From NCBI GenBank assembly GCA_025359905.1, contig JANYDF010000114.1, positions 46,077 to 110,076 on the forward strand: a stretch of 64,000 nt of DNA. The letters run 5' to 3'. Positions within the stretch are counted from its first letter, which is position 1. Each line of letters starts with the position of its first letter. The DNA is from Rhodospirillales bacterium (GTDB taxonomy: Bacteria; Pseudomonadota; Alphaproteobacteria; Acetobacterales; Acetobacteraceae). Shown in pieces: positions 29,274-35,311 of this stretch. Position numbers and translations under genes: made by a program. The notes under the pieces were generated by a model. The model did not search any database. It worked only from the letters and a program-made list of their open reading frames with translations, and had not been told where the DNA came from.

Positions 29274-29450
29274 GGCGGGCGTCCTGAGCGTTGAGCGGGG
29301 CGGGAGACTAGGCGTGCCCGATGTATCGGACAAGGCGCGGCAAGCCGGCGCACACGTTGCCGTCAACGCATTGCGTGGGCTAAAATCAGGGCAGAGATTG
29401 AACCGGCCTCGGCCAGCGTCACGCGCAGCGGCCCCAGACAGGACGTGCCA

Positions 29451-31925
29451 ATGAGCGGGACAATATTCTCCGGCAGTTACCTGACCGGCGTTACGCTGAC
29501 CAACACGGCATCGAATCCGGTGACCGTCGCCAGCAGCGCCACCATCGGCAACACCGGGGCGCCAGCCATCGCCGGGCCAGCCACGGTGACCGGGACAGCC
29601 ACGGTGAACTGGACGATCACCAACGACGGAAAAATCAGCGCCACCGGTTCTACGATCAGCAGCGCAGGCATTTCACTCGGCGGCGGCGGGACCATCACCA
29701 ACGAGGCGCAAGGTTCGATCAGCGGCTACAGTTATGGCGTGAAGCTTGGGGCGGCGGGGTCGGTCTCCAACAGCGGCTCGATCGGCGGCGCCGGCAAGAA
29801 CAGCATCGGGGTGCTGGTGCCGGGCGGCCAGATTATCAACAATGCGGGTGGAACCATCACGGCCGGCTACATCGGCGCGTTCATGACCAAATTCGGCTCG
29901 GCGGACAATGCCGGGTTCATTCATTCCACCGGCGGCTATGCGCTGGGCGGCATTGGCGCAGCCAGCGTCACCAACGAGGCGACCGGCACCATCACCAGCG
30001 CCAACGTCGGCATCGCGCTGACCGGGGCTGGCACGGTCACCAATTCGGGCAGTGTCGGCAGCACCTCGGGCTATGTGCAGAACGGCGGCGACAAGGCCGG
30101 TATCGACCTGCGGGCGGGCGGCAGCGTCACCAACCTGTCAGGCGGACGGGTCACCGCCGAGTGGAAAGGCGTGTCGTTCGGCGCGCGCGGCACGTCGCTG
30201 GCCACGGCCTCGACCATCTCCAGCACGCTGACCAATTCCGGCTACGTGTTTGCGGGCAACGGGTCCAACGCTGGGGCGGCGGTGTGGATGCACACCAACG
30301 GCGTGATCCTCAACGAGAGCGGCGGCACCATCACCGGCGGGCCGTACGGCATCGTGGCGTATTACAACACCACAGTCGTCAATCAGGGCGTGATCGGGTC
30401 GGGCGGGCCGCCGGGCTACAGCACGTTCGCGGTGTTCGAGGCCAATGCGGCCTCCACTGTCCGCGTCGAAATGGCGCCGGGTGCGCGTTTTACCGGCACC
30501 GTCGAGGGCGGCGCGTCGGGCACCGGTGCGGCAATGGGCACGCTGGAACTGCTGGCCGGGGCCAACGCCGGCAGCCTGACCGGGTTCGGCACGCAGTTTG
30601 TCAACTTCGCCGCCGTGCAGATCGACGCCGGGGCCAACTGGTCGCTGGCGGGAACTGTTGCCGCCAGCCAGACCGTGGCGTTCGCGGGCAGCGGCCAATT
30701 GTCGCTGACCAACCCCACCGCCATGCAGGGCACCGTCGTTGCATTCGACAAGGGCGACTCGCTGGTGCTGGCGGGCATCACCGGCGTTACCTCGGCGGTG
30801 GTCAACGGCAGCGACCAACTGGTGATCACCGCCGGGACCAGCGTCGCTGCGACGCTGCAGCTCGACCCGTCGCGGCACGATCCGGCGGGCACCGCATTCC
30901 GGTTCGTTCAAACCGGCGGCGGCACCGAGATCGTCGCCTGCTTCGCCGCAGGCACCCGCATCGCCACAGACACCGGCGAGGTGCCGGTGGAGGCGCTGAC
31001 GCCGGGGATGCGGGTGCGCTCGCCGTTCGGCGGCACGCAGCCGGTGGTGTGGACCGGGCATCGCCGCACCGATTGCCGCCGCCACCAGCGCCCGCACGAC
31101 GTGCAGCCGGTGCGCGTGCAGGCGGGCGCGTTCGGCCCCGGCCAGCCCGTGCGCGATTTGTGGCTCAGCCCGGACCACGCGGTGTTCGTCTCGGGCGTGC
31201 TGATCCCGGTGCGTTATTTGGTGAACGGGCGCAGCATCGTGCAACTGGATGTGGATGCGGTGACGTATTGGCACGTCGAGCTCCAGCGCCACGACGTGCT
31301 GCTGGCCGAGGGGCTGGCGTGCGAGAGCTATCTGGACACCGGCAACCGCAGCGCCTTCGCCAATGGCGGCGGCGCCACCATGCTACACCCCGATTTCGCG
31401 TTGCAGGTTTGGCAGGCGCAGGCCTGCGCCGCGCTGGTGCGCGAGGGCCAGCGGTTGGTGGTGGCGCGGCAGGGCTTATTGATCCGCGCCGTCGAACTTG
31501 GCCACACGCTGACCAGCGAGCCGGACGTAACGCTGACCGCCGGCCCGCGCCTGCTGACAATTGCCCGCACCGGCGGCCGTTACCGCGCCGCACCGGCAGG
31601 CGGACAGGTGCGGCTCGCCTGCCGCGCGTGGGTGCCGGCCCACACCCGGCCCAACGAGTCCGACACGCGCACGCTCGGCGTGGCGATCAAGGACATTGTG
31701 TTCAACGGCGCACCGATCGCGCTGGACGATCCGCGCCTGACCACCGGCTGGCACGCGCCGGAAGCCGCATGGCGCTGGACCGATGGCGATGCCATGCTGG
31801 AACTGGAAGGCTGCGGCACGCTGGCGTTCACCGTGGCGCTGGCCGGAACCTACTGGACGGACGAGGCCGCCGTCACACCCCAGTGGCGGTCGTTGCCCCA
31901 TCCATCGTCACGTTCACCCCGCTGA
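29451..31925 (+). CDS. Hint (Hedgehog/intein, bacterial intein-like) domain protein with an N-terminal beta-helical repeat region
   Basis: About 496 aa of degenerate G-T-I-T-N-x-G-x-I repeats (GGTITNEAQGSISG, AGTVTNSGSVGS, GGSVTNLSGGRVTA ...) and no obvious signal peptide. Then CFAAGTRIATDTGEVPVEALTPGMRV...LWLSPDHAVFV...HDVLLAEGLACESYLDTGN (Hint_2-type module), then about 190 further aa. Confidence 0.8.
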   Translation: MSGTIFSGSYLTGVTLTNTASNPVTVASSATIGNTGAPAIAGPATVTGTATVNWTITNDGKISATGSTISSAGISLGGGGTITNEAQGSISGYSYGVKLGAAGSVSNSGSIGGAGKNSIGVLVPGGQIINNAGGTITAGYIGAFMTKFGSADNAGFIHSTGGYALGGIGAASVTNEATGTITSANVGIALTGAGTVTNSGSVGSTSGYVQNGGDKAGIDLRAGGSVTNLSGGRVTAEWKGVSFGARGTSLATASTISSTLTNSGYVFAGNGSNAGAAVWMHTNGVILNESGGTITGGPYGIVAYYNTTVVNQGVIGSGGPPGYSTFAVFEANAASTVRVEMAPGARFTGTVEGGASGTGAAMGTLELLAGANAGSLTGFGTQFVNFAAVQIDAGANWSLAGTVAASQTVAFAGSGQLSLTNPTAMQGTVVAFDKGDSLVLAGITGVTSAVVNGSDQLVITAGTSVAATLQLDPSRHDPAGTAFRFVQTGGGTEIVACFAAGTRIATDTGEVPVEALTPGMRVRSPFGGTQPVVWTGHRRTDCRRHQRPHDVQPVRVQAGAFGPGQPVRDLWLSPDHAVFVSGVLIPVRYLVNGRSIVQLDVDAVTYWHVELQRHDVLLAEGLACESYLDTGNRSAFANGGGATMLHPDFALQVWQAQACAALVREGQRLVVARQGLLIRAVELGHTLTSEPDVTLTAGPRLLTIARTGGRYRAAPAGGQVRLACRAWVPAHTRPNESDTRTLGVAIKDIVFNGAPIALDDPRLTTGWHAPEAAWRWTDGDAMLELEGCGTLAFTVALAGTYWTDEAAVTPQWRSLPHPSSRSPR
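30939..31349 (+). other. Hint_2 / B-type BIL autoprocessing module inside the 29451..31925 CDS
   Basis: Starts at the conserved Cys (TGC 30939-30941, residue 499 of the track ORF) in CFAAGT.I. Ends at ...AEGLACESYLDTGNR. Confidence 0.65.
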
Positions 31926-32649
31926 TGTAGCTGGCGCGGTCCGAGGCCAGAAACGCGACGAAATTGGCAATATCCTCGCCGCTGGCCATCCGCCCGAGCG
32001 GGATTTTCGCCACCGCGCGGGCGCGGGCGTCCTCGACCGTGATCCCGGCCAGCGCCGCGTCGGCCTTCATGCCTTCCGCAACCCGGCTGGTGTCGGTCAA
32101 TCCCGGATTGAGCCCCACCACCCGCACGCCGCGCGGCGCATAGGCGGTGGCAAGCCCGGCGGTAGCCAGCATCAGCGCCGCGTTTGCCGCCCCGCCCGCC
32201 AGATGCGTGGCGGAGGCGACCTTGCCGCCCTGCCCGATCACATTGACGATTACGCCAGCGCCGCGCGCCGCCATGCGCTTGATGACCGGGTCGATCACGT
32301 TGATATAACTGAAATATTTGGCATCCATTGCCGCCCGCCAGAATTCCGGGGTCAGTTCGTCCGGCGGTGTGCGCCGTGCGGCGCCCGCACTGTTGACCAG
32401 CACATCGACCGGCCCCAGCGCCGCCTCGACCGCCGCCGCCAGGGCTGCGGCCTGTGCCGCGTCGGTCAGGTCGGCGGCAAAGCCGAACGCGCCGCGCAAT
32501 TCGCCGCACGCTGCGTCGATGTTGGCCTGCGAGCGTGACGCAATGGCCACACGCGCGCCTTCGGCACGGAACAGCTTGGCGCAGGCCAGCCCGATCCCCT
32601 TCGATCCGCCGGTCACCAGCACCACCTTGCCTGTCAGTCCGAGATCCAT
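31873..32649 (-). CDS. SDR family oxidoreductase
   Basis: MDLGLTGKVVLVTGGSKGIGLA (TGxxxGIG), with NSAG and an SDR-type C-terminus. Its 3' end overlaps the convergent Hint gene by 53 nt. Confidence 0.85.
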   Translation of the reverse strand: MDLGLTGKVVLVTGGSKGIGLACAKLFRAEGARVAIASRSQANIDAACGELRGAFGFAADLTDAAQAAALAAAVEAALGPVDVLVNSAGAARRTPPDELTPEFWRAAMDAKYFSYINVIDPVIKRMAARGAGVIVNVIGQGGKVASATHLAGGAANAALMLATAGLATAYAPRGVRVVGLNPGLTDTSRVAEGMKADAALAGITVEDARARAVAKIPLGRMASGEDIANFVAFLASDRASYISGVNVTMDGATTATGV

Positions 32650-32725
32650 CGCGCGTCCCCCTGCCGGCTGGACTATTCCATGTCCGGCGTTAGCCTTGCA
32701 GCCATCGTATGCCACGGAACCAGCC

Positions 32726-33496
32726 ATGATCGACCCGTATCCGTCCAGCCACCGCCCCGCCGGGATCGCCCCGGACGAATGGGATCTGCGCGTCCGCCTC
32801 GCCGCCGCCTATCGGGTGGTGGAGATGCTGGGCTGGAGCGAGGTGATCATGAACCATCTGTCGGTGCGCATTCCCGGCCCCGAACATCATTTCCTGATTA
32901 ACCCGTACGGGCTGCTGTACGACGAAGTCACCGCCTCGAATCTGCTGAAAATCGACGTGAAGGGCAACAAAATCGCGCCGAGCGACTACCCGTTCAATCC
33001 GGCGGGCTTCGTTATTCATTCGGCGATCCATCAGGCGCGCGCCGATGCCGTCGCGGTGATGCACACGCATTCCACCGCAGGCACCGCGATCGCCACCAAG
33101 GCGCACGGTCTGCGGCATGACAGTTTCTATGCCGCACAGTTGTGTGGCCGGGTTGCCTATCACGACTATGAGGGCCTCAGCATCCGCCTCGGCGAACAGG
33201 ACCGCATCGTCGCCTCGCTCGGCGACAAGCCGTGCATGATCATGCGCAACCACGGCCTGCTGACCGTGGGGCCGAGCATTGCCAGCGCGTTCTGGCAGTT
33301 GTGGCGCTTGCAGCGCGCCTGCGAGGCGCAGGTGCTGACCGATGCGATGGACGGCCCGAACGTGCATCTGCCGCACGCGCTGGCGTTGCAAGCGGTGAAA
33401 GACGCCGATAGTTACAGCAAGCACGCGGTCGAGGACAAAATGCTGGACGCGCTGGCCCGCCGCGCGTTCCGCCGCGATCCGTCATACGCGACGTAG
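32726..33496 (+). CDS. Class II aldolase/adducin family protein
   Basis: ATG at 32726 within track ORF 32318..33496. NHLSVRIP...FVIHSAIHQARADAVAVMHTHS...MRNHGLLTVG. Confidence 0.85.
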   Translation: MIDPYPSSHRPAGIAPDEWDLRVRLAAAYRVVEMLGWSEVIMNHLSVRIPGPEHHFLINPYGLLYDEVTASNLLKIDVKGNKIAPSDYPFNPAGFVIHSAIHQARADAVAVMHTHSTAGTAIATKAHGLRHDSFYAAQLCGRVAYHDYEGLSIRLGEQDRIVASLGDKPCMIMRNHGLLTVGPSIASAFWQLWRLQRACEAQVLTDAMDGPNVHLPHALALQAVKDADSYSKHAVEDKMLDALARRAFRRDPSYAT

Positions 33497-33607: not shown

Positions 33608-35311
33608 ATGCCTTACCCAGTAAGTATTCACTTGAAGAACTTCGCTTGCCTTATTCGCGGCCTCACCATCATCGCAGTGACCGCCGCAGGCGGATTTTGT
33701 ACCAACGCCGCTTGGGCGGCCGCGTGCCCGGCCGCCCCGGCCAGCGTGCCCGACTCACCGGCACCGCCGGTTCCGCCATTCGGGACGCCATTGCCTGCGG
33801 GCACCACGCCATCTGGCTGGCCGCCCGCTCCGGGCCTGCCGCTGCGCTGCCCGGCGGTGCCGCTGGCCGGTTCGCACGCAACCTATAACGTCGGCCCCGG
33901 CAAGCACTACACGTCGCTAAATGACGTGCCGTGGCTCAACCTGGTCGCTGGCGACGTGGTGAATATCTATTATTCGCCAACGCCTTATGCTACAAAAATC
34001 GCCCTGCGCGCCGGGGGCACGGCAAGTGCCCCGGTGGTAATCAATGGCGTTGCCAACGCCAGCGGCAAGTTACCCCTCATCACCGGCAAGAACGCGACAA
34101 CGGCGACCGATGCGATCCAGCAGGGTTTCTTCACCACATCCGGCGGTTCGATAATCGAGGAATTCGGCGTGTTTACGCTCTACCGGGGCCTGCACGATGC
34201 GTATGGCTATAAGCCGTCCTTCGTCACCATTCAGAACCTGCGGATCACCGGGGCAGCGCCGGGCAACACATTCACCGATCACACCGGCGCATTGCACAAA
34301 TACCCCACATTCACCGGCGGCATCTATGTCGTGGCAAGCCAGCATTTAACGGTGCAAAACGACGAGCTGTTTGGCAACGGCATTGGCGTTTTTGTCAATG
34401 ACCAGAACGACACGGCGGGTAGCAGCTTCTATACGACACTGCGCGGCAACTACATTCATGACAACGGCGTTGTCGGCAACTGGAGCGTTCACAACCTGTA
34501 TGTGCAAGGCACCCGCAGTCTGTACGAGGGCAACTATATTGGCCAACTGATTCCAGGTGCGCTGGGCTCCGCGCTGAAGGATCGCAGCAGCGGGACCGTG
34601 ATCCGCTATAACCACATCGATGCTGCGGCACGCGCAATTGATCTGGTGGATGCCGAAGGCGGCAGCCCCTATACTGGAAGCGACAAGCTGTACAATACTG
34701 CCTGGGTTTACGGCAACGCAATCGTCGATGACTTCAGTCTGCCCGGCAGCAGTTCCGGCGACATGATCCATTGGGGTGGCGACAGCACGGTCTATAAAAA
34801 TTACCATAACGGCTCGCTGTATTTCTACGACAACACCGTGATGATCAATGCATCGAAGTCGCAGACCTATTCTCTGGCGATCTTCGACATGCCAACGAAT
34901 AAGCAGACCATCGTTGCCGCCAACAACGTGATCACCCATACGGGCAATTCGGACATCATCCTATGCACGAATTCCCTGCCGGATGGCACGACGGGCACAC
35001 TGCGGTTCACGCAGGCGAACTGGCTGACGCCGTATACCAACGCCGGTGCCTGCACGCTCGACACCTCGGCGGCCAATATGCTGCCGGGCACGCCGGTGGT
35101 TGGAACAAATGGCCACTTGCTTGCCGGATCGCCGGCCATCGGCGCCGGAACGGCGTATCCACCTGCAACGCTGAAATTGCCAGCCCCAGCCAGTCTGGCG
35201 CGTCTGCAAGTCACCAGCCAGTTCGCACTGCTGCCCGGCACTGTGACTGTCCGGCCAACATATAAGCCGCGCGCCACGGTGACCGACCTCGGCGCGTTCC
35301 CCAGCCCCTGA
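33608..35311 (+). CDS. Secreted right-handed parallel beta-helix (pectate-lyase-fold) protein; possible polysaccharide lyase/depolymerase
   Basis: Signal peptide (...IIAVTAAGGFCTNAAWAAA), a Pro-rich linker, then PbH1-like turns (LTVQNDELFGNGIGVFVND; LRGNYIHDNGVVGNWSVHNLYVQG; YEGNYIG; VYGNAIVDD; FYDNTVM). Visibly AT-richer than its neighbours. Confidence 0.6.
   Translation: MPYPVSIHLKNFACLIRGLTIIAVTAAGGFCTNAAWAAACPAAPASVPDSPAPPVPPFGTPLPAGTTPSGWPPAPGLPLRCPAVPLAGSHATYNVGPGKHYTSLNDVPWLNLVAGDVVNIYYSPTPYATKIALRAGGTASAPVVINGVANASGKLPLITGKNATTATDAIQQGFFTTSGGSIIEEFGVFTLYRGLHDAYGYKPSFVTIQNLRITGAAPGNTFTDHTGALHKYPTFTGGIYVVASQHLTVQNDELFGNGIGVFVNDQNDTAGSSFYTTLRGNYIHDNGVVGNWSVHNLYVQGTRSLYEGNYIGQLIPGALGSALKDRSSGTVIRYNHIDAAARAIDLVDAEGGSPYTGSDKLYNTAWVYGNAIVDDFSLPGSSSGDMIHWGGDSTVYKNYHNGSLYFYDNTVMINASKSQTYSLAIFDMPTNKQTIVAANNVITHTGNSDIILCTNSLPDGTTGTLRFTQANWLTPYTNAGACTLDTSAANMLPGTPVVGTNGHLLAGSPAIGAGTAYPPATLKLPAPASLARLQVTSQFALLPGTVTVRPTYKPRATVTDLGAFPSP

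Follow-up and report, generated by a model that had tools for sequence, protein, structure and literature searches.

A Hint-linker-beta-sandwich cassette of the B-type bacterial intein-like family at the C-terminus of an adhesin-like repeat protein from Acetobacteraceae

B-type bacterial intein-like (BIL) domains have been known since 2003, and their cellular role is still open. Proteins of this type from alphaproteobacteria are said to have been treated by Amitai et al in 2003 and by Dassa et al in 2004. B-type BILs keep the N-terminal motifs of inteins, lack block G and cleave their flanks without splicing (PMC4031507, PMC7765530). Here, we analysed a 64,000-nucleotide stretch of DNA (the window) from a Rhodospirillales bacterium of the family Acetobacteraceae, contig JANYDF010000114.1, which carries a gene for a protein of 824 amino acids (aa), P0001. 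From its profile match, the Hint domain of this protein belongs to the known B-type BIL / Hint_2 family. It does not stand alone: it opens a constant C-terminal cassette composed of Hint, a two-helix linker and a beta-sandwich C-terminal domain (CTD), which follows N-terminal passengers that vary from one protein to the next. The elements on which this description depends are the following.

29451..31925, + strand: whole gene, coding for the passenger-Hint-linker-CTD protein P0001, 824 aa (translation of the open reading frame, ORF).
30939..31346, + strand: Hint_2 / B-type BIL domain, aa 497-632 (Pfam, AlphaFold2 (AF2), Foldseek).
30939..30941, + strand: codon TGC of Cys497, the Hint nucleophile; presumed scissile bond between Ala496 and Cys497 (invariant column).
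31167..31178, + strand: block-B motif Ser573-Pro-Asp-His576, the equivalent of intein TxxH (alignment).
31323..31349, + strand: near-invariant E-S-Y-L-D-T-G-N-R, aa 625-633, at the Hint/linker junction (alignment).
31347..31505, + strand: linker, aa 633-685, a loop and two helices that pack on Hint in the model (model, profile).
31506..31880, + strand: CTD beta-sandwich, aa 686-810, with invariant D..R.LG, GW...E and RWT.G motifs; D738, R740, W767, E771, R775 and W776 are among its invariant residues (alignment, model).

The ORF at 29451-31925(+) comprises 824 codons plus a stop, and its single Pfam match is Hint_2 (PF13403; E 1.5e-46, 158.9 bits for a cut-off of 28.4), which covers aa 497-630 and profile positions 2-146 out of 147; a scan of P0001 against NCBIfam gave no match. 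In the AF2 model, the Hint domain has a predicted local distance difference test score (pLDDT) of 93-98, and Foldseek aligned it with probability 1.0 to BIL2 (6y75), the Mtu RecA intein, a C. thermocellum BIL (2lwy), Vint (8r2c) and Hedgehog (1at0). Hedgehog came only 25th in this ranking and, as modelled, the domain resembles BILs and inteins more closely in structure than it does Hedgehog. Across an alignment of 63 sequences, the Cys497 column is invariant (63/63), as are Ser573, Pro574 and His576 of the block-B motif; Asp575 is conserved in at least 90%, and Glu625, Leu628, Arg633 and Phe636 are likewise invariant or nearly so. Family members open Hint with Cys-Phe (or Cys-Tyr).

At the other end of the domain, nothing resembling block G was found. 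The last strand ends with ...LACES, the sole nearby Asn lies in Gly631-Asn632 before Arg633, and the Hint end (Gly-Asn then Arg, aa 631-633) has neither His-Asn nor a +1 nucleophile. The absence of block G is a feature by which B-type BILs are defined (PMC4031507). A true intein is ruled out, there being no split host protein, no His-Asn and no +1 nucleophile; the Hint module follows unrelated N-termini, with linker and CTD constant on its C-flank, which is not the layout of an intein inserted in a host. Much of this had been proposed in a sequence-only reading of the window, made without database searches. The ORF, the Hint module with its Cys codon TGC at 30939-30941 and the ~190 aa after it were all recovered here, the strings quoted at the time (CFAAGTRIATDTGEVPVEAL, SPDHAVFV and HDVLLAEGLACESYLDTGN) are all found in P0001, and the assignment to a BIL-type (Hint_2, B-type) module and not to a true intein is borne out by a Pfam match above the curated cut-off and by Foldseek. 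The end then given for Hint needs a small correction: the last Hint beta-strand stops at LACE(S), aa 622-626, and YLDTGNR lies just beyond it, in a loop of lower confidence.

We then compared P0001 with its relatives. Searching 5.8 billion proteins gave full-length relatives with identities of 40-58%, the two closest reaching 58% and 56% across 97-98% of the length. Other relatives match only the last ~38% of P0001, at 58-61% identity, and have different N-termini (GDSL lipase, S8 peptidase). The block that they share runs from CFAAGT... to ...GWHAPEP.WRWTDGDA...TG.YW. The source genome itself (4.63 Mb, 66% G+C) contains 19 Hint_2 matches and 16 full-length Hint ORFs, of which 13 carry a tail of 182-201 aa directly after Hint, at the extreme C-terminus. 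These paralogues are 42-74% identical to P0001 in Hint and 35-49% in the CTD, with no N-terminal similarity; among their passengers are an S8 subtilase, a calpain-like protease, long repeat regions and a region that contains HExxH. The N-terminus is thus variable and the C-terminus constant, the reverse of a polymorphic toxin, and also the opposite of the variable C-termini for which the sequence-only reading had proposed to look among the paralogues.

The same organization is found family-wide. With a CTD profile of 123 positions, and clusters counted at 50% identity, a cut-off of E<=1e-3 gave 5,060 clusters and one of E<=1e-10 gave 3,392; almost all matches end within ~10 residues of the protein C-terminus. 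Hint_2 is present in 59 of 61 sampled CTD representatives, the linker profile matches directly after Hint in 56, and the exact order Hint (136 aa)-linker (57 aa)-CTD (120 aa)-end is observed in 55; the variants are Hint-CTD-CTD, Hint-linker-CTD-CTD and one protein without Hint. The domains matched in the passengers are ones typical of extracellular proteins: AIDA stalk, Beta_helix, Peptidase_S8, trypsin, RTX, pectate-lyase-like, GDSL lipase and calpain-like. The CTD occurs in 41 of the 61 sampled genera of the source's taxonomic family, at 1-30 copies per genome, and at least 585 loci are present in GTDB representative genomes. Named relatives are mostly Acetobacteraceae and Rhodospirillales metagenome-assembled genomes, along with Limobrevibacterium, Asaia-labelled and Acidisphaera genomes.

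Within the source genome, several Hint-CTD paralogues are observed at contig ends or as tandem pairs (C22, C25, C33, C71, C114; e.g. C114:555-9051, C25:17525-23759, C22:29374-41424). The paralogue copy number may be underestimated because the conserved cassette probably breaks the assembly. Outside the window, at ~37.4-38.1 kb on the minus strand of contig C114, stands a decayed paralogue (L018) whose Hint is cut after ~50 residues (...VVWLGHRTVDCRR) and whose linker and CTD are read in a different frame, within an ORF of 224 aa; an internal deletion or a frameshift seems to have removed the Hint core.

The three parts of the cassette are modelled as one unit. The AF2 model of aa 485-824, calculated from the 63-sequence alignment, has a pLDDT of 90.7 and a predicted template modelling score (pTM) of 0.88, with the CTD at ~97. 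The linker contributes two helices, aa 647-657 and 667-682, whose pLDDT is 91-98 when modelled with Hint and 57-79 without it, the beta-sandwich being confident either way; this fall in linker confidence when Hint is left out points to a linker that packs against Hint. The sequence-only reading had taken the C-terminal ~190 aa for a separable cargo or toxin that Hint would free. While its BIL assignment stands, this second part does not, since the region is conserved with Hint, as a partner of fixed order and spacing, and is modelled with it as a single co-folded unit, an outcome that the sequence-only reading had itself named as one that would refute it.

Between Hint and linker, the junction consensus E-x-Y-L-D-T-G-N-R-x-x-F sits in a loop of pLDDT 66-83, and 192 residues follow Asn632 in P0001. 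Of 121 CTD-bearing proteins, 120 have the Asn of the TGN motif, in place of which genuine Hint-linker-only relatives have Gly or Asp, a count made with no phylogenetic correction; the YLDTGNR motif is missing from the three own-genome paralogues that have no CTD. This pattern hints at a link between Asn632 and the CTD, in which the residue would serve as a second cleavage site, for which the Asn632-Arg633 bond is a possible candidate, or as a contact.

The CTD resembles no described family in the collections searched. Pfam contains no family for it (31 CTD sequences searched at E<=1 gave scattered chance matches only) and NCBIfam no model; the CTD profile matched no PDB sequence at E<=10, and Foldseek returned nothing significant from PDB (best E 0.07) or BFVD (best E 0.026). 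Two carriers have it outside the cassette. In the source genome, a CTD with neither Hint nor linker, though very close to the Hint-linked ones, ends a 694-aa glycosyltransferase family 1 (GT1)-like ORF (C146:2322-4403(+), L100; CTD profile E 1.4e-39), the Glycos_transf_1 match of which is weak and under the curated cut-off; its neighbours, anthranilate synthase and aldose epimerase, do not make a polysaccharide locus. The other, P0156, is a metagenomic, low-G+C, Lys-rich protein of 1531 aa that carries six tandem partial CTD copies after a multi-pass PMT_2/ArnT-like membrane region (PMT_2 match weak, under cut-off). Its repeats read ...STD.RTLGV...GFYGQE...VRWTNGAAKL..., and a DUF7532 match on P0156, weak and under cut-off, was not taken as the identity of the CTD. 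From these tandem copies, the CTD is thus older than the alphaproteobacterial Hint cassette and more widely spread. The association with glycan enzymes, together with the conserved aromatic and charged residues, suggests that the CTD may be a glycan- or envelope-binding module.

The remaining parts of P0001 lie on both sides of the cassette.

29451..30512, + strand: variable N-terminal passenger, aa 1-354, Gly/Ala/Thr/Ser-rich degenerate beta-helix-type repeats (motif enrichment).
30513..30938, + strand: pre-Hint 'stalk', aa 355-496, with the pattern ...GF..(G)D.L.L.G....F....GGGT..(A/P) running into the cleavage site (alignment consensus).
31881..31925, + strand: Arg-rich tail, aa 811-824, and stop codon (sequence).

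The degenerate beta-helix-type repeats noticed in the sequence-only reading are real: the motif [IVL]xNx[GA]x[IVL] is found 5 times in aa 1-496, for 0.36 expected (2,000 shuffles, maximum 3), and alternates with a second motif of the type ITNEAQGSI. The passenger has no Pfam or NCBIfam match, so far as these two collections go no known trafficking domain at its N-terminus, and no paralogue in its own genome with detectable N-terminal similarity. Stalk-like segments precede the Cys in several own-genome paralogues, and no family model matches them. A recurring pre-Hint segment, ...GF..(G)D.[IL].[IL].G ... F....DG.GGT.[IL]..(A/P) immediately before the Cys, is seen in many members, not in all, and lipase-type members are without it. 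At the other end, the tails that follow the CTD have a family-wide median of 9 aa and few acidic residues, with Arg at 16.6% compared to 5.7% overall; such a tail could be a charge-based recognition tail or merely an effect of high-G+C read-through.

Flanking-ORF clustering revealed no recurrent partner gene beside the 16 own-genome paralogues or at 80 related loci. A short-chain dehydrogenase/reductase (SDR) and IlvD alone recur beside related loci, as orthologous synteny. The lack of a recurrent neighbour means no immunity gene, no chaperone and no dedicated transporter; the sequence-only reading had already pointed out that no immunity-like gene follows P0001, which holds here as well as in the 80 related loci. 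At three of these 80, the cassette gene adjoins a gene for an Aah/TibC-type autotransporter O-heptosyltransferase (TIGR04414, E 2e-192; L022:2669-3850, L041:5229-6593, L063:2-601), an enzyme for which we found no gene in the source genome.

With moderate confidence, we favour the reading of P0001 as a modular protein in which a variable adhesin-like passenger is followed by a constant, self-cleaving Hint-linker-CTD processing cassette, the CTD acting as a recognition, binding or anchor module. In its layout, the protein is most likely Hedgehog-like. The protein is probably exported. Cys497, aided by His576 of block B, would turn the Ala496-Cys497 bond into a thioester by an N-to-S acyl shift; this thioester would be resolved, most simply by hydrolysis, and the passenger shed from the Hint-linker-CTD unit. 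Such a cleavage of P0001 would parallel that of the Rhodobacter B-type BILs. The CTD, probably by binding an envelope glycan, would hold or position the precursor until cleavage, and a second, atypical cut at the CTD-linked Asn632-Arg633 bond may then free the CTD. The conserved linker and beta-sandwich partner, and with them the three-part C-terminal cassette, appear to be undescribed: our literature search found no link between Hint-domain proteins and acetic-acid bacteria, secretomes or a conserved C-terminal partner, an earlier mention in the original BIL papers being possible.

Several observations weigh against this reading. Pro at position -1 hinders the N-S acyl shift in inteins, and among 121 members the residue before the Cys is Pro in 54 (~45%), for 58 Ala, 5 Ser and 1 Gly; P0001 itself has Ala (codon at window 30936-30938). 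Either the family tolerates Pro, or half of its members process differently. The literature search returned no biochemistry for P0001 or for any CTD-carrying member. The N-terminus of P0001 is not Sec-like and has no hydrophobic segment (maximum KD12 1.17), the protein has no RTX match, and the sole pair of type I secretion system (T1SS) genes in its genome (C99:6752-10606, an ABC protein and a HlyD-family membrane fusion protein (MFP), the latter above cut-off) is unlinked to any Hint gene. As for the CTD, the glycan-binding idea draws on domain association and conserved aromatic and charged residues only, both glycosyltransferase-like carriers have Pfam matches under the curated cut-offs, and the domain need not act extracellularly because one of these carriers is of the cytoplasmic GT1-like type.

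Four rival explanations were weighed. Hint, linker, CTD and Arg-rich tail could together form a C-terminal signal for signal-peptide-independent secretion, by type I or another route, Hint cutting the cassette off after transport to leave the mature passenger; this overlaps with the favoured reading, from which it differs in the role of the CTD. A crude hydropathy screen found no Sec-like N-terminus among 102 full-length members (none reached 2.2 and 3 reached 2.0), although the screen is poorly calibrated, as a control ORF of the window with an apparent signal peptide scored 2.15; in P0001, the lack of a signal peptide agrees with the sequence-only reading. The enzymes among the members begin right at their mature N-termini, as does the GDSL lipase P0098, the unit is always at the extreme C-terminus with its short Arg-enriched tail, and one of the 61 representatives has RTX repeats. 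A HlyD-type MFP above the curated cut-off is found in 58 of 61 genomes of the taxonomic family, the smallest cassette-carrying ones included; however, nearly every genome of the family has this MFP, with or without the cassette, which makes the co-occurrence uninformative. T1SS signals tend to be short and unstructured, unlike a folded unit of 330 aa. After the T1SS pair of the source genome come a Sel1 protein with eight repeats and a GT2+GT4 fusion of 995 aa (C99:6752-15464, L101), an odd setting for a protein exporter and one with no Hint gene. The CTD is also carried by a GT1-like protein and, in tandem, by a membrane protein. Type I export is possible on these data, and we consider the export cassette as a whole unlikely. 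We hold a bacterial analogue of Hedgehog to be more doubtful still. There, the Cys497 thioester would be resolved not by water but by a nucleophile that the linker and CTD present (an envelope sugar, a lipid or a peptidoglycan amine), the beta-sandwich acting with the YLDTGNR loop. The passengers, many unrelated enzymes and adhesins, would thereby become covalently linked to the Gram-negative surface or receive a small adduct, with neither sortase nor helper enzyme. In favour of it, the layout is Hog-like, with a variable N-domain, a Cys-Phe Hint and a conserved post-Hint region (PMC2362128); the invariant YLDTGNR loop exits the last Hint strand, where splice junctions meet in Hint folds; Hint and CTD are modelled as one rigid unit; and the aromatic and charged motifs of the CTD are common to domains on glycosyltransferase-like proteins. 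Against it, the -1 residue is Ala or Pro and not Gly, the Hint domain is closer to BILs and inteins (1at0 ranking as given above), linker-only relatives without CTD are common, and the reactions reported for B-type BILs are simple cleavages.

Two further rivals were considered. An inactive, structural Hint, forming with the rest of the cassette a folded C-terminal cap or anchor that never cleaves, would account for the frequent Pro at -1, which is unfavourable to the acyl shift, and for the tight Hint-CTD packing in the model, which suggests a stable unit. Nevertheless, the invariance of Cys1 and of the block-B Ser, Pro and His over 63 sequences of very different proteins is hard to explain without catalysis, and related B-type BILs cleave in vitro, which makes a purely structural role highly improbable in our view. 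Release of a C-terminal toxin domain by Hint, as in polymorphic-toxin systems where Hint acts as the releasing peptidase before toxin domains (e.g. the MafB context), would fit a gene family with multiple copies per genome. Here, however, 13 of 16 paralogues and 59 of 61 representatives share a conserved C-terminal domain; no immunity-like gene is found downstream or recurs in the 80 loci; the CTD is a beta-sandwich with no recognizable catalytic family and also occurs on glycosyltransferase-like proteins; and Pfam and NCBIfam reveal no known trafficking domain at the N-terminus. The conserved C-terminus and the absent immunity gene largely refute a C-terminal toxin cargo, and we attach almost no credence to it.

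The start and surroundings of the gene add the following.

29440..29443, + strand: Shine-Dalgarno-like AGGA, 7 nt 5' of the ATG (read from sequence).

We favour ATG 29451 as the start codon over GTG 29445 because AGGA is spaced 7 nt from the former and leaves almost no spacer for the latter. At its 3' end, the gene overlaps by 53 nt a convergent SDR ORF (31873-32727, minus strand; adh_short E 1e-40), as described in the sequence-only reading, and the other neighbouring genes, for IlvD and a class II aldolase, have housekeeping functions. At window 33608-35311(+), we observed a 567-aa ORF with an apparent signal-peptide N-terminus and beta-helix-like sequence, which has no Pfam match at E<=0.1.

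A BIL of Acetobacteraceae or Rhodospirillales is thus, in most cases, no lone insert; it opens a fixed three-part C-terminal cassette common to thousands of otherwise unrelated proteases, lipases and adhesins. The question of the BIL role then becomes whether the cassette sheds, exports or covalently anchors its passenger, and what the beta-sandwich binds. Should the cassette prove to be an export or anchoring tag that removes itself and needs no signal peptide, it would represent a new principle of Gram-negative surface-protein maturation, and possibly a self-cleaving fusion tag for industrial acetic-acid bacteria.

Compared to known systems, P0001 is closest to the B-type BILs, with which it shares the Hint family, the N-terminal Cys, a TxxH-like block B, the lack of block G and of a +1 nucleophile, and an occurrence in variable secreted-type proteins present in many copies per genome in alphaproteobacteria. 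It differs from them in that its BIL opens a fixed cassette of Hint, two-helix linker and 120-aa beta-sandwich at the extreme C-terminus, and in that an Asn is conserved in its family only alongside the beta-sandwich; a conserved post-BIL partner is not mentioned in the reviews, and the original BIL papers may differ in this respect. With Hedgehog/Hog proteins, it shares a division into an N-terminal product and a C-terminal processing machine, with a variable N-domain, a Cys-Phe Hint and a post-Hint region, which in Hedgehog/Hog recognises a sterol or adduct and in P0001 consists of the conserved ~57-aa two-helix linker plus the CTD. The differences are that the -1 residue in the P0001 family is Ala or Pro instead of Gly, that the crude screen shows no signal peptide, that no adduct is known for it, that its Hint is followed by a much larger region with a beta-sandwich at the end, and that the Hint is nearer to BILs and inteins. 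Membership in Hedgehog/Hog fails because the -1 Gly, the signal peptide and the structural proximity are all wanting.

In the polymorphic-toxin Hint proteins of the Neisseria MafB type, Hint also lies within large, probably exported, multi-copy proteins; there, a variable toxin and an immunity gene come after Hint, whereas the P0001 family has a constant C-terminus, a variable N-terminus and no immunity gene. AIDA-I autotransporters resemble it by their adhesin-like beta-helix passengers (some P0001 relatives match the AIDA stalk), by a C-terminal module parted from the passenger by autoproteolysis, as would be the case for P0001 by analogy, and by the Aah/TibC gene at 3 of 80 loci. Unlike them, P0001 has neither a signal peptide nor a C-terminal beta-barrel translocator, its C-terminal module being Hint-linker-CTD. 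In the type IX secretion system (T9SS), a small beta-sandwich at the extreme C-terminus is carried by many unrelated secreted enzymes and adhesins and removed during maturation; T9SS cargo proteins have Sec signal peptides, are processed by a separate sortase-like enzyme and belong to Bacteroidota. The parallel with the T9SS C-terminal domains is one of analogy only, in that the P0001-type cassette, found in alphaproteobacteria, would bring its own built-in processing enzyme.

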